DNA of 64,000 bases, taken from Escherichia phage RB14. The notes beneath the pieces were generated by a model that saw only the letters and a program-made list of their open reading frames with translations, ran no database searches and had not been told where the DNA came from. Below, one piece after another: positions 49,664-54,662 of the stretch (positions within the stretch are counted from its first letter, which is position 1; every line of letters starts with the position of its first letter). The stretch lies in sequence record NC_012638.1. One strand, 5' to 3'. A program made the position numbers and the translations under genes.

Positions 49664-49978
49664 CTAAAAGAAACTTCTTTCACAATTTTTTCCACTGAAC
49701 CACGCGCTCACTGCTTTCTTAGTCTCAGGAGCAGTGTTATCCATAAACCATTCAAAGGCAGCCTTTTTATGATTCTGGAGGGCTTCTCGGGCTTTAATCT
49801 GCTCACGGTCTATTAACACTAACATATGAGCCTTTCTTGTCACCAGGGGCTTCTTATGATTTTTTGAATATTCCCAATCATTTGTCCATCGCATTGTCGT
49901 TGCGAACTGATGAACCGCGTCTTTAATTTTAGTTTCATAAATTTCACGAGCCTTTGAGTATAACATCATTACCTCCAT
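49664..49978 (-). CDS. hypothetical protein, 104 aa
   Basis: ORF table. Confidence 0.5.
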   Translation of the reverse strand: MEVMMLYSKAREIYETKIKDAVHQFATTMRWTNDWEYSKNHKKPLVTRKAHMLVLIDREQIKAREALQNHKKAAFEWFMDNTAPETKKAVSAWFSGKNCERSFF

Positions 49979-50048
49979 TTACCAGTTTAATTCTAGTCAT
50001 CTTTTTAATGGCAGTCCATATAATCTATTTCTGAACTGCCTTTTTGTC

Positions 50049-50768
50049 TTACGATTCTTCTAAATGTCTTTTCTGAAAAGTTGATACCATACTACGATAC
50101 GGTTCATTTGGATACCCATGTTTTATAGCTTCCTTTGTAAATTTTCTCCATCCATATTTAGTTTCTTTCCAAAGCTCGAATAATTCATCTTCATATTGCC
50201 ATATAGTTAAATGAGAACGCTTTGCAGCTTTAATTCCATTAATATGCTTTTCTTTTACTACAGGATTGCTTAGTTTCTTTTTAATAATATTACTAACTTT
50301 TCTAACAAAAACTGGGTCCTTATATCGTTGAGAAGTTTTTATTGAAGTGTTTAATTTAGCTTCCGGCGTGGATGTAACCTCTTTCATCTTTTTCTTCATA
50401 TGCTGTATATGATTAGGATTTTTCCATAAATTTATAGAATGCTTTTTGCATTTTATCCTAGTTTCATCTGCAACCTTTCCTCCTTCACCCCCGTATGACA
50501 GGTTAACACAGTTTTTTCCATATTTCAATTTACCTGCCATGATATATAATATTTCAGCTTGTACCATTTTATCATAATTATCAAAAACTTCTAAAACCGT
50601 TTTTGATAATATGTGGTCATTTGACACTTTTACACGTTCTATATAATTTCCACTACCAACATACGAATCATTGATGTTATTAGTTATATGTCGACCATAA
50701 TAGTATTTCTTAATACCTGTCTTTAAATTTAATATTTCAGTTTTATAGATAGTAAAATATTTTTTCAT
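50049..50768 (-). mobile_element. free-standing GIY-YIG homing endonuclease (Seg-like), 239 aa
   Basis: N-terminal TIY...YYG-R module (FTIYKTEILNLKTGIKKYYYGRH) and basic C-terminal half; start overlaps the upstream gene stop. Confidence 0.6.
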
Positions 50769-51745
50769 TTTAATAATACCGTTTCAGCAATTTCTTCCCA
50801 ATGATTTTTGTCGGTCATAATAAAGTCAGCAAGATAAAGAGCAGTACGCAGTGAAACATTGCGTAAACGATTAACATTGACTTTCATCCATGATAATGCT
50901 TTATAAGTTTCTTCATCAGAAAGACCGCGCTTTTGCATCATGTCGGTTGAAAGAATAACATCTTCAACCCTGACCATAATTTCTTCATTAGTGTGAACAC
51001 CCAAATCCAAATAAACTGAGCGGGACACTAATGCTTGTAAATGTGGAGCAAGTTTAGTACCACGGTCTAATTCGCGGTCAATGTCAACGTTTGTGATAAA
51101 AACAATCGTTCCTTTAAATTCAAACTCACGCTCAATGCCTTTTTCTTCTAAGTAAGAAGATGCAGTGCTCCAGCAGACTTTACGGGTCTCTCCAGTGTCC
51201 AGAGCAGCTTTTAGAAGATTAAGAATGTCCATATCAGAGAAAACATCCACATCATCAATCAAAAGGACAGAATTCTCTTCACGATTATTCCAAAGCTGTT
51301 CATAAAGACCGATACCAGAGATTTTACCATTAATGCTTTTATATTCAATGTATCCAATATCATTTGCTTTATTTAAAGCTTTATCCAAAGAATACGTTTT
51401 ACCAATACCTGCTGCTCCCGAGATAATTAATGAACGAATGTTTCCGTTAATAATACCATTCGTCATCATTCCCATAACATTAAATCTTTTATTAATGCGG
51501 GTTTTCATATCTTCATATGATTCTTTAACTTCTTCAACTTTTACGCCATCATATGAAATGTCTGATTTGTAAACCCAAACACCGCGACGTTTACCGTCAA
51601 TTTCAACAAAAACTTTACCATCTCCTTGTGCATCTACCGGAGCATTATCCGGGAACCATTCGCCTAAGAGCTCAAAAGTTCCAGAGATTTCTTTACCGAA
51701 GTAGATACCCTTATTGATAGTTACAGTTTTCATTTTATTCTCCAA
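50765..51745 (-). CDS. AAA+ ATPase, 326 aa
   Basis: Walker A GAAGIGKT and Walker B LLIDDVD, preceded by a roughly 100-aa N-terminal domain. Confidence 0.65.
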   Translation of the reverse strand: MENKMKTVTINKGIYFGKEISGTFELLGEWFPDNAPVDAQGDGKVFVEIDGKRRGVWVYKSDISYDGVKVEEVKESYEDMKTRINKRFNVMGMMTNGIINGNIRSLIISGAAGIGKTYSLDKALNKANDIGYIEYKSINGKISGIGLYEQLWNNREENSVLLIDDVDVFSDMDILNLLKAALDTGETRKVCWSTASSYLEEKGIEREFEFKGTIVFITNVDIDRELDRGTKLAPHLQALVSRSVYLDLGVHTNEEIMVRVEDVILSTDMMQKRGLSDEETYKALSWMKVNVNRLRNVSLRTALYLADFIMTDKNHWEEIAETVLLK

Positions 51746-51767
51746 ATCCGTATCAGTTGATAGTTGT

Positions 51768-51797
51768 ATAGTACCATAAAGCTTTATGCTTGTAAAC
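51768..51797 (-). promoter_or_regulatory. early promoter of a PeSL-like cassette
   Basis: plus atagta 51768-51773, gtaaac 51792-51797; conserved leader to the AAA+ ATPase start. Confidence 0.55.
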
Positions 51798-51826
51798 CGT
51801 TTTGTGAAAAATTTTTGAAATAAAAA

Positions 51827-51846
51827 AGGGAGCCCGAAGGCTCCCT
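51827..51846 (-). terminator. rho-independent terminator (UUCG hairpin plus U-run)
   Basis: agggagcc-cgaa-ggctccct with plus A-run 51822-51827. Confidence 0.65.
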
Positions 51847-51847
51847 A

Positions 51848-52861
51848 TCATTTATAATAACTTCGATGGTTTTTAAGATAGACCTTCTCAAGGAAGTCAT
51901 CCCAGAAACCCATGTCTACTTTTTGCTGCATACCGTTCTTAGAAGCTTCAATAGATGCTGCTTCTACTTGATCGACCACATCTTCCAAAAACTCTTGAAC
52001 GGTTTTAAATGGATGTTTACCCAACTTCACGTCGAGAATAAATGGAGCATCTTGGAGTGGATAAACCAAGTCACCAGTTTTGTAAATTTCCAATAGTTGG
52101 AGTCCACCACGACAAGCATGACTCAAAGCTTTCCAGTCAATGCCTTCATTGGCTTCGGCCTTACGGGCACGTTCACCATATTCAGCATCTAATTTGTTCA
52201 GTGACTGCTTAAGCTCAATAAGAGAAAGCGTCGTCTGATATTTACGACCCAACACAGTGTAGAACGTTTGTGGGCCTGTTTTCTCATGATTATGGAACAC
52301 CCATTCACAGAATTCGTTTTCTGGAAGACGATGCTTAATATCTTCAACTTTAGTGCGACGCTGCTTAATAGAACCATCTTCTTGGTAATCAACCCATTGC
52401 TCAGGGATTTGATTAACTACTTTCAATACATCACGTAATGCAGCCAAACGAGAACCCTTGACACCGTATTTAGAAGCTTGCTTGCGGACATATCCTAAAT
52501 ATGATTTCATGTTAGTCGTATAAAAACGAGAACGGTTGTCTTGAATAAACTTCCACACATCAGGCAAATCAGATTTAACCACTAGTTCAGGTGGAGTGTG
52601 AAGCATATCTAATGCTACGGTTTCACCATCTGCTGCTAATTTAAAGAAATATTTAAGACTGTATAGTTCATGGTCAATATCATCTTTAGTGTTTTTAGAT
52701 GATGTGTTGTTGGTATTTTTACTCATATGCTCTTTAACATTTCCGATAAGAATATCACGAGCAGGAGGAACAAAGATTTCTTTAAAATCTACATCAGATT
52801 CTGGAGTAGAAGTTCCATAAAGATGACTACCAAAATAGCTTTTCATTACTGTTTTCATCAT
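51848..52861 (-). CDS. pol-beta superfamily nucleotidyltransferase-like protein, 337 aa
   Basis: N-terminal motif FGSHLYGTSTPESDVDF (GS-x9-DxD) followed by a helical domain. Confidence 0.6.
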   Translation of the reverse strand: MMKTVMKSYFGSHLYGTSTPESDVDFKEIFVPPARDILIGNVKEHMSKNTNNTSSKNTKDDIDHELYSLKYFFKLAADGETVALDMLHTPPELVVKSDLPDVWKFIQDNRSRFYTTNMKSYLGYVRKQASKYGVKGSRLAALRDVLKVVNQIPEQWVDYQEDGSIKQRRTKVEDIKHRLPENEFCEWVFHNHEKTGPQTFYTVLGRKYQTTLSLIELKQSLNKLDAEYGERARKAEANEGIDWKALSHACRGGLQLLEIYKTGDLVYPLQDAPFILDVKLGKHPFKTVQEFLEDVVDQVEAASIEASKNGMQQKVDMGFWDDFLEKVYLKNHRSYYK

Positions 52862-53319
52862 TCAGCCTTATATTCAATAACAGGACATACTTTAGCTTTA
52901 CGAGCTTTTAAAAATTCAACGATAACCGATTTCTTGGGTTGAATAGGAGGTAAACCTTTATACGCCCTATCAATATTTTCTACGTGTAAAGCATAATCCT
53001 TTTTCCATTTATAATCTTTATATTTTTCACGCAAATGTGCAGGAATAACAAATGAACCGATAATAAGTAAAACAACCAAAAGCGCAAGTATAAATGCTGA
53101 TGGAAGCAAAGTCCATAAACTACCGAAAATAAGCCAACGTTGTAGGCTTTCTACACAAATAATTGTTAGCCCTACGAGTATAGCACATCCAAAAATAGAA
53201 ACGAAAAATGTAGGAATGGCAATAGACCAAAAATATGCGCATAGTGTCTTAGGTCGTTGCCATTCATCGTTAAACAATTTGAATAATTTATAATGCCAAG
53301 AGTTTTCATTAATAATCAT
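52858..53319 (-). CDS. membrane protein, 153 aa
   Basis: three predicted transmembrane segments; stop overlaps the nucleotidyltransferase start. Confidence 0.55.
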   Translation of the reverse strand: MIINENSWHYKLFKLFNDEWQRPKTLCAYFWSIAIPTFFVSIFGCAILVGLTIICVESLQRWLIFGSLWTLLPSAFILALLVVLLIIGSFVIPAHLREKYKDYKWKKDYALHVENIDRAYKGLPPIQPKKSVIVEFLKARKAKVCPVIEYKAE

Positions 53320-53321
53320 AA

Positions 53322-53843
53322 TTATCCTTTCATTGAAGGCGTAACGGTTGTTAAATACTTAATCATAGCTTCAGCTTCTGATTTTGATAATGAAATTTCT
53401 CCATTGTTTTGACGAATAGAAATAAAATCTGGATGACGGTCACCACCAGCTTTTAAAACACACATATAAGTATCAACTTCGCCTTCAATATTTGAAATGA
53501 TTGAAGCAGTTCCACATGAATGTGGTTTTTGATAAATCAATACAGCTTTTCTTCCACCGTTTGACTGTTCATAGGCTTTTAATACATCAAGCAAATCAGT
53601 TCTTTTATCAATAGCTAAAATGTTATTTTCATCTTCAATGTTAAATCCTTCGGATACTTCATAAAGTGTTACCCATAAATCACCAATGTCAATAACAGCA
53701 TTTACGTTTCCACGGCTTTCAAGAGTATGACAAATTTTCTTGATTTCGTCATAACTCATTTTAATAATATCATCTCCTTGAATAAGAAAGATGTCATTTT
53801 TAAATTCAACACGAATTAAACCACTTCCACTTGAAATAAACAT
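53322..53843 (-). CDS. hypothetical protein with GFNIE motif, 173 aa
   Basis: GAGGAAA Shine-Dalgarno; paralogous to 53999..54382. Confidence 0.5.
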   Translation of the reverse strand: MFISSGSGLIRVEFKNDIFLIQGDDIIKMSYDEIKKICHTLESRGNVNAVIDIGDLWVTLYEVSEGFNIEDENNILAIDKRTDLLDVLKAYEQSNGGRKAVLIYQKPHSCGTASIISNIEGEVDTYMCVLKAGGDRHPDFISIRQNNGEISLSKSEAEAMIKYLTTVTPSMKG

Positions 53844-53998: not shown

Positions 53999-54382
53999 TT
54001 AAACAGTTTCATCATTCTGATCGCAAGCGTTAGTAATAATAGCATTGCAATTTTTAAGCCATTTTAAACTATGTTTTCTTTCATTAGAATAATAAAAATA
54101 TTTAATCTTAGTTATAAAATTATCCCAATTATTAATTGATAAGCATATTGACTCGCTTTCAATATTAAATCCTGGGCATAAAGAATAAAAATGAATTTTA
54201 TGCTCATCATTAATGCTTACAATTTTATCAGTATAAGGATTTTCAATTTTGGTTAAATGAATGATTTCACTAGGCGTAAAATACAGCATATCGTCTTCTT
54301 GTGTCAAACGATACATATTATTTACTTTTTCTATAGCCAATTCACCAAAAAGTGAACTAACTTCTAATACTAATCGTTTCAT
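53999..54382 (-). CDS. hypothetical protein with GFNIE motif, about 127 aa
   Basis: paralogue of 53322..53843 (CPGFNIESE versus SEGFNIEDE). Confidence 0.5.
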   Translation of the reverse strand: MKRLVLEVSSLFGELAIEKVNNMYRLTQEDDMLYFTPSEIIHLTKIENPYTDKIVSINDEHKIHFYSLCPGFNIESESICLSINNWDNFITKIKYFYYSNERKHSLKWLKNCNAIITNACDQNDETV

Positions 54383-54383
54383 A

Positions 54384-54662
54384 TTAATCCTTTTTAATGG
54401 CATGAATTTGTTCTAAAATTTTAGAGTATTCCTTTATATCAGATTTACGTACAATCGATACACTATAAGGCATACTATCGGTGTCTTTTATAAAGCGTTC
54501 CAAATGACACTCTAACAAAATTTCTGGATTATAAATCGTGTACATCAAATTACCTGTTGCTCCACGATATTGACAGATTTCTACTGATTGAGCATCATTC
54601 CACAATTTTGTTAAGACTAAATCACCTACTTCTAATTTAGGAAAGCCCATGTTATTCACCAA
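54384..54662 (-). CDS. hypothetical protein, 92 aa
   Basis: ORF table. Confidence 0.5.
   Translation of the reverse strand: MVNNMGFPKLEVGDLVLTKLWNDAQSVEICQYRGATGNLMYTIYNPEILLECHLERFIKDTDSMPYSVSIVRKSDIKEYSKILEQIHAIKKD

Follow-up and report, generated by a model that had tools for sequence, protein, structure and literature searches.

The 239-aa ORF at positions 50049–50768 (minus strand) of Escherichia phage RB14 DNA (NC_012638.1; the window, i.e., the whole stretch of DNA that was analyzed, has a length of 64,000 nucleotides) most probably encodes a free-standing, Seg-family (GIY-YIG) homing endonuclease located at the 3′ end of nrdC.10 (probability about 0.8), for which DNA cleavage and homing are presumed activities. 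The gene is already known in databases as a putative endonuclease, and the finding is correct but ordinary. The new points are modest: donor and recipient alleles are defined exactly, the nrdC.10 tail is recoded in linkage with the gene, a hairpin is lost, Jiaodavirus has a paralog at the same site, and some copies are mislabeled as ‘segE’. A 4.4-kb stretch around the ORF has 97–98% identity to many Tequatrovirus genomes (T6, RB32, RB51, RB68, and AR1 among them), and the window is from a Tequatrovirus, a T-even phage of the T6/RB32 type.

The nrdC.10–nrdC.9 Locus and Its Predicted Expression Signals

The endonuclease ORF, as given in the ORF list of the window, starts with ATG and ends with a TAA stop codon (50049–50051). 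Its ATG and the TGA stop of the upstream gene overlap by 4 bp in the form of ATGA, as the original prediction had described for the end of an AAA+ ATPase gene. This upstream gene (50765–51745, minus strand; 326 aa) is the homolog of T4 nrdC.10 and encodes an AAA-like P-loop protein, with weak AAA/P-loop matches in Pfam (AAA_14, E = 5.9e-05), a strong match to PHROG 1250, and corresponding annotation in AR1, RB32, and T4. In the ORF list, the 326-aa nrdC.10 frame starts with TTG (51733–51745); because relatives are annotated with a 969-bp (322-aa) CDS from an ATG four codons downstream, this ATG is probably the true start. The downstream neighbor is an nrdC.9 homolog (49664–49978, minus strand; DUF7203; domain match and annotation), and the next gene beyond nrdC.10 on the upstream side is nrdC.11, which encodes an RlaP-type nucleotidyltransferase. 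The endonuclease ORF is free-standing between nrdC.10 and nrdC.9, outside any intron or intein; both neighbors are intact, and the nrdC.10 product stays full-length despite the insertion. nrdC.10 is the host gene, and its 3′ end is the insertion site.

No Shine–Dalgarno sequence is found in the 30 nt preceding the endonuclease ATG, and neither a late promoter (TATAAATA) nor a MotA box is found on the gene strand within 49900–51900. An early-type promoter-like site (TTTACA-17-TACTAT, with TG) is located upstream of nrdC.10 (51768–51796, minus strand); it was detected by a consensus scan the hits of which are not above the shuffled expectation, and the annotation of ASO78A and fPS-65 places a T4 early promoter at the corresponding position. 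This site is the probable source of a transcript that also covers the endonuclease ORF. Given the lack of a Shine–Dalgarno sequence and the ATGA overlap with the nrdC.10 stop, translation of the endonuclease is probably coupled to that of nrdC.10 at a low level; the likeliest mode of expression would be co-transcription with nrdC.10 and low-level translation by termination–reinitiation at ATGA. An imperfect inverted repeat (GGCAGTCC...GGAACTGCC, plus strand) at 50010–50040, just downstream of the endonuclease stop, is common to carrier and non-carrier alleles, and may be a processing or termination hairpin preceding nrdC.9.

Other sites in this gene cluster are also variable. The spacer between nrdC.11 and nrdC.10 (51746–51847) is a second indel hot spot, which here contains only the promoter-like site and an intrinsic-terminator-like hairpin detected by a signal scan (51827–51846, minus strand). 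The T2 spacer contains a 486-bp ORF annotated as an ADP-ribosylase, and two or three small ORFs (DUF4031 and others) are present in the spacers of ZN18, ASO78A, fPS-65, and slur14, and one in that of PhiZZ23. The original prediction reported no counterpart of mobD, an HNH endonuclease gene that T4 carries a few genes away, and the slot occupied by mobD in T4 (from nrdC.11 to the mobD.1-like gene) indeed contains no HNH gene in this window. The further proposal that the ORF differs from mobD and was acquired independently is also borne out: the ORF belongs to the GIY-YIG class and has another location, and unrelated genes fill the mobD slot. This slot (52858–53843) contains a 153-aa membrane-like ORF and a gene for a 173-aa y05I-like protein (PF24449/PF24448) that is paralogous to the next gene (53999–54403), and is a further place at which mobile or accessory genes are exchanged. 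A search of all six-frame ORFs of the window with the family HMM finds no second Seg-like gene. Database annotation of the region is noisy: nrdC.x genes are called ‘thioredoxin’, T6 nrdC.9 is called ‘HNH homing endonuclease’, and mobD.x genes are called ‘molybdopterin-guanine dinucleotide biosynthesis protein MobD’.

GIY-YIG Domain and Basic C-Terminal Half

Sequence comparison and structural modeling support the assignment of the ORF to the Seg-type GIY-YIG nucleases, with nuclease activity as a prediction. The ORF matches PHROG 314 (‘homing endonuclease’, E = 1.8e-30), and tblastn matches include T4 SegB (1e-5), SegH (2e-6), a SegD homolog, and many ‘Seg-like’ genes elsewhere in T4-like phages. 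Exhaustive HMMER searching finds 1419 relatives, whereas a word-indexed protein search with the single query returns only 2 matches. Among 41 family members, 15 match PF19835 (SegE_GIY-YIG), 10 match PF01541, and 11 match NUMOD3 (PF07460).

The catalytic GIY-YIG domain (aa 1–99; 50472–50768, minus strand) contains ‘TIY’ (Y8), ‘YYG’ (Y23–G25), H27, D34, Y36, GSG (38–40), E72, N89, and GG (93–94). The GIY motif is represented by T-I-Y8, the Tyr of which pairs with I-TevI Tyr6 at the end of β-strand 1, and the YIG motif by Y23-Y24-G25, which corresponds to I-TevI Y17-V-G19 in β-strand 2. The position of the metal-binding Glu is filled by E72 (aligned to I-TevI E75) and that of the conserved Asn by N89 (I-TevI N90). 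In a MAFFT alignment with T4 SegA–G, I-TevI, and I-TevII, Y23, G25, S39, and N89 are invariant, with near-invariance of Y8, Y36, E72, G93, G94, and G96; invariant positions in the alignment of 41 family members are Y8, G25, D34, Y36, G38, G40, E72, N89, and G93. N89 is invariant in all three alignments made. Comparison of the family profile with I-TevI by hhalign (E = 3e-5) pairs Y8 with Y6, YYG with YVG, E72 with E75, and N89 with N90. The AF2 model, built on 51 sequences with a mean pLDDT of 90.8, has an N-terminal β-β-α-β-α domain, and this predicted fold matches the I-TevI catalytic domain, including the three-stranded sheet and helices. Alignment, profile comparison, and predicted fold therefore agree on the N-terminal GIY-YIG module that had been proposed from the sequence.

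The same proposal made the catalytic Arg and Glu of GIY-YIG nucleases a point to be checked by alignment. The Glu is present (E72, equivalent to E75), whereas the helix that carries Arg27 in I-TevI has no counterpart: this I-TevI segment is opposite a gap in the ORF, and in the same alignment also opposite a gap in T4 SegA–SegG, and the AF2 model has a loop (aa 30–40) where I-TevI has the R27 helix. As SegA–SegG, most of which are proven nucleases, also lack this helix, its absence is, as judged from the alignment, probably a trait of the Seg subgroup rather than a defect of the ORF or a sign of inactivity. Arg26, Arg45, and Lys47 are nearby basic residues and candidate stand-ins for I-TevI Arg27.

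Several database searches with the ORF are negative. Pfam gives no family for it at E ≤ 0.1 or even at E ≤ 10, PF01541 and PF19835 included. However, the experimentally proven SegF and SegG are likewise without a match in the same run, and the result thus reflects limited sensitivity rather than counter-evidence. Searches of PDB sequences by phmmer and by hmmsearch with the family profile find no GIY-YIG match, just low-complexity helical noise, and a Foldseek search of the PDB with the full-length model finds nothing. An HNH (Mob-type) endonuclease was also considered and rejected, as there is no HNH match in Pfam and the motifs and fold are those of GIY-YIG.

The C-terminal half is basic, as originally described, with 32 Lys plus Arg and 15 Asp plus Glu in residues 100–239 (pI 10.0). 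It consists of a basic helical arm (aa 100–186; 50211–50471, minus strand), delimited by AF2 helices, repeat positions, and charge, and a three-helix domain (aa 187–239; 50052–50210, minus strand) that can be aligned with the C-terminal sequences of T4 SegA and SegF. The arm has four helices with an exact 17-aa period, each with an [N/T/D]P cap (aa 117, 134, 151, and 168); the helices of the AF2 model span residues 101–116, 118–132, 135–150, 152–166, and 169–186. The arm may be a DNA-tracking linker of the NUMOD3 type, NUMOD3 itself being present in the 11 relatives noted above and absent from the ORF, and the C-terminal domain is a putative helix-turn-helix DNA-binding domain.

Compared with T4 SegA–SegG and SegH, the ORF product shares the catalytic motifs (including the Seg-specific ‘G-x-H-x-T ... 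D-G-Y-x-G-S-G’), a size of about 200–240 aa, and a C-terminal domain that aligns with those of SegA and SegF, and the gene is similarly intergenic, free-standing, and patchily distributed. It differs from the T4 Seg proteins in its locus (nrdC.10/nrdC.9), in NUMOD3 and GIY-YIG Pfam scores that are below detection, and in sharing only 20–30% identity with any of them, for which reason it is the ortholog of no named Seg protein, SegE included. The label ‘segE’ attached to the copies in AR1 and RB68 is therefore wrong: identity to T4 SegE is 23% (SegA, 26%; SegB, 24%), and the locus differs from that of T4 segE, which is between inh and uvsW. The ORF also differs from I-TevI, the td intron endonuclease (PDB 1LN0 for the catalytic domain); it is not intron-encoded, has 15–18% identity, and lacks the R27 helix, zinc finger, and DNA-binding domain of I-TevI.

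Insertion Block, nrdC.10 Tail, and Same-Site Relative in Jiaodavirus

The ORF DNA is present in 65 phage records (T6, RB32, RB51, and others) with 97.5–100% identity, and the uninterrupted junction is present in 435 records, T2 and T4 included, which corresponds to an occupancy of roughly 13%. Presence of the ORF at this site in all relatives, which would have spoken against a mobile element, is thereby refuted. The GenBank copies, such as RB32ORF093c and T6 KMB99_gp092, are the same gene at the same position (97.5–100% DNA and 99–100% protein identity), with nothing material differing, and the protein is 100% identical in phage 132 and RB68. RB32ORF093c is annotated as ‘putative site-specific intron-like DNA endonuclease; similar to seg’, the T6 RefSeq entry as ‘DNA endonuclease’, and other copies as ‘homing endonuclease’.

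The boundaries of the insertion are defined by BLAST and motif-anchored junction comparison. For this, T4, T2, RB18, and nine other genomes lacking the endonuclease gene (HEG-less genomes) were compared with the window and nine other genomes carrying it (HEG+ genomes). A comparison with T4, T2, and T6 had been suggested at the outset, and the outcome is a 734-bp block (50052–50785, minus strand) that is found only in carriers; relatives without the endonuclease have 37–39 bp in its place (39 bp for T4, where the whole gap between nrdC.9 and nrdC.10 is just 94 bp). The boundaries are identical in the 10 HEG+ and 12 HEG-less genomes, and the block is always at the same position among carriers. 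Its GC content is 29.2%, compared with 36.1% in both flanks.

The empty allele reads ...GAAAT[T/C]GCT GAG GTT ACT CTT CTG AAA TAA (A)TTCATAAGAGG[A/C]CTTCTA[T/A] GACAAAAAGG..., and the occupied allele, in 10 of 10 carriers, reads ...GCT GAA ACG GTA TT[A/G] TTA AAA TGA AAAAA...[ORF]...GAATC[G/C] TAA GACAAAAAGG.... The block thus includes a recoded nrdC.10 tail (50765–50785, minus strand), GAA ACG GTA TTA TTA AAA TGA (E-T-V-L-L-K-stop), which corresponds to GAG GTT ACT CTT CTG AAA TAA (E-V-T-L-L-K-stop) in HEG-less genomes. Nine of the 21 bases are changed, and the last six codons of nrdC.10 specify ETVLLK instead of EVTLLK. The recoded version is found in all 10 HEG+ genomes (with one synonymous A/G variant) and the other version in all 12 HEG-less genomes. 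The tail is otherwise conserved across genera as AEVT[LMQ]L[KR]: 36 HEG-less loci from several genera end in ...(A/S)EVT[L/M/Q]L[K/R], with one exception, a Tequatrovirus locus ending in ...IATVTLLK. Judged from these sequences, the recoded tail is a candidate self-immunity polymorphism.

A hairpin that spans the nrdC.10 stop codon of the empty allele (CTCTTCTGAA-ATAA-TTCATAAGAG), and for which ASO78A has a rho-independent terminator annotation, is eliminated by the block and missing from every carrier. With this hairpin deleted, nrdC.10 transcription would read through into the endonuclease gene.

T4 is atypical at this junction. Its reference nrdC.10 contains an extra G (GCTACGGGTTACTC, compared with GCTACGGTTACTC in a close relative; NC_000866, about 54332–54374), and the resulting +1 frameshift makes the product end in ...IATGYSSEINS rather than in the conserved AEVT[LMQ]L[KR]. 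The extra G is either a strain-specific frameshift or a legacy of sequencing. Because of this frameshift, T4 is a poor boundary reference, and its use as the ‘empty site’, which gives a misleading boundary and tail, was rejected in favor of T2, RB18, and IMG/VR loci; better references than T4 are T2, RB18, ASO78A, fPS-65, e11/2, slur14, ECO4, PhiZZ23, and three IMG/VR genomes.

The closest distinct relative of the ORF is VMC263_95 of Klebsiella phage ValerieMcCarty03 (Jiaodavirus), with 46% identity over the full length. This Jiaodavirus endonuclease is present in 10 records (ValerieMcCarty03 and nine more), and also in a Serratia phage with 80% DNA identity. It has the same three-part architecture and the same insertion place, directly after an nrdC.10 ortholog (74% protein identity), where 49 bp of endonuclease-less Jiaodavirus-like loci give way to a 739-bp block. 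The homology break lies inside the last nrdC.10 codons, with EVTMLK becoming EVTQLRG, and here too the insertion eliminates a terminator-like hairpin (GGGAGGAGAAATCCTCCC). Unlike the Tequatrovirus gene, it starts 8 nt past the nrdC.10 stop codon with no overlap, and its linked tail is EVTQLRG, not ETVLLK. HEG-less loci of both Tequatrovirus and Jiaodavirus feature a hairpin that coincides with or closely follows the nrdC.10 stop, and both insertions delete it.

The occurrence of two diverged endonucleases at the nrdC.10 3′ end, each with an altered tail, points to this end as the address of a Seg lineage. In an extended reading, which we consider rather doubtful, the Tequatrovirus and Jiaodavirus genes would belong to one Seg lineage that tracks the last codons of nrdC.10 and the hairpin across genera, each carrying a recoded tail as an immunity cassette and riding on translational coupling. 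If this were true, the enzyme would also spread the adjacent nrdC.10/nrdC.11 pair (P-loop ATPase and RlaP-like nucleotidyltransferase), and if the enzyme recognizes the hairpin rather than the sequence, this would be structure-assisted targeting by a GIY-YIG homing enzyme.

Proposed Homing Model and Alternative Readings

In the favored model, the endonuclease would be produced at a low level from the early nrdC.10 transcript by translational coupling. During mixed infection, its C-terminal modules would bind the endonuclease-less allele, which would be cut at or near the nrdC.10 3′ end, the putative target (around GCTGAGGTTACTCTTCTGAAATAA and the adjacent hairpin). The T-even recombination machinery would then repair the break with the endonuclease-carrying genome as template, thereby transferring the gene together with a little of its flank (‘intronless homing’, accompanied by local exclusion of markers), and the carrier genome would be shielded by its recoded tail and by the hairpin loss. 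That the cut falls at the nrdC.10 tail is presumptive; for characterized Seg enzymes, distances of up to hundreds of bp between cleavage and insertion sites are common. Intronless homing has precedents in SegF, SegG, SegE, and SegB (PMC2988022, PMC2330249, PMC1564403).

Sequence variation among carriers bears on both the maintenance and the transfer of the gene. The dN/dS ratio is about 0.1 among eight intact copies, and 24 of the 34 polymorphic sites are at codon position 3, which indicates that the protein is under purifying selection. In the flanks (about 1 kb on each side), no SNP differs in frequency by ≥0.7 between the 10 HEG+ and 12 HEG-less genomes; 4 bp from the junction, alleles already segregate 5:5 and 5:7, with no linkage past a few bases. 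As no flank polymorphism stays associated with gene presence, the block is found on many flank backgrounds. This pattern is compatible both with repeated transfer in which conversion tracts are short and with a loss of linkage through the very high recombination rate of T-even phages, and recent homing events are unreadable from the flanks because there is no extended co-conversion haplotype around the insertion.

These two features, a dN/dS ratio compatible with any selected nuclease function and the lack of long co-conversion tracts, would also suit an active Seg-type nuclease whose main role is not self-homing but the exclusion of competitor markers elsewhere, or the introduction of breaks through which useful neighbors recombine or undergo segmental amplification. 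T6 SegB, which acts in trans and promotes gp49.1–nrdC.1 amplification (PMC13096335; reported for anti-defense loci), is a model for such a role, and SegD, as described through reference 15 of PMC10055350, is an active T4 nuclease without homing of its own gene. We regard a predominantly non-homing role as improbable: self-homing predicts the sharply delimited presence/absence block, the recoded, target-like sequence linked to it, and the diverged paralog at the same site, and nothing ties the ORF to amplification or defense evasion.

Self-homing also accounts better for the junction than an ancestral gene at the nrdC.10 site that was never inserted and was deleted in most T-even lineages. Decay does occur: frameshifted copies are present in two of 10 sampled carriers, namely AR1 (a 1-bp deletion, with a stop at 165 aa) and RB3 (a 7-bp insertion that splits the gene into CDSs of 96 and 159 aa), and the same-site Jiaodavirus homolog can be read as shared ancestry. 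However, all 12 HEG-less Tequatrovirus junctions have the same 37–39-bp sequence with the hairpin and the canonical EVTLLK tail, and the canonical form of the tail extends to the 36 HEG-less loci of several genera, which independent deletions would not regenerate. In addition, the block is compositionally foreign (29% GC, as against 36%), the endonucleases are only 46% identical between genera whereas the nrdC.10 proteins are 74% identical, and flank SNPs are unlinked to gene presence. Ancestral presence followed by loss is therefore very unlikely. The element is decaying in some lineages, and the coexistence of maintained and decaying copies is the usual life cycle of a homing endonuclease.

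A reading of the ORF as a relic that has lost catalysis, or as a DNA-binding protein that has been domesticated and whose helix repeats and helix-turn-helix are kept for regulation of the nrdC cluster, is hardly credible. In its favor are the absence of a Pfam GIY-YIG match and of an alignable Arg27, and the large basic DNA-binding portion. Against it, Y8, Y23, G25, E72, and N89 are all kept and do not vary across the family; a Pfam match is missing for the proven SegF and SegG as well, and the Arg27 helix for SegA–G in the alignment; and purifying selection is evident, with amino-acid substitutions among the eight intact copies avoiding the catalytic positions and being located mainly in the C-terminal arm.

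No characterization of this protein was found in literature searches for nrdC.9, nrdC.10, RB32ORF093c, or a formal Seg name, and it is not among the T4 mobile elements covered by a 2010 review. Because T6, a classic phage, carries the gene and both T2 and T4 lack it, carriers and non-carriers can readily be crossed directly. The defined alleles and the same-site paralog from a Klebsiella phage are ready substrates for mapping a new Seg target, with no new principle otherwise. Free-standing homing endonucleases of this kind shape T-even genomes by creating local recombination hot spots and biasing marker inheritance in mixed infections, and in the recent case of T6 SegB, such an enzyme can promote the amplification of anti-defense genes.
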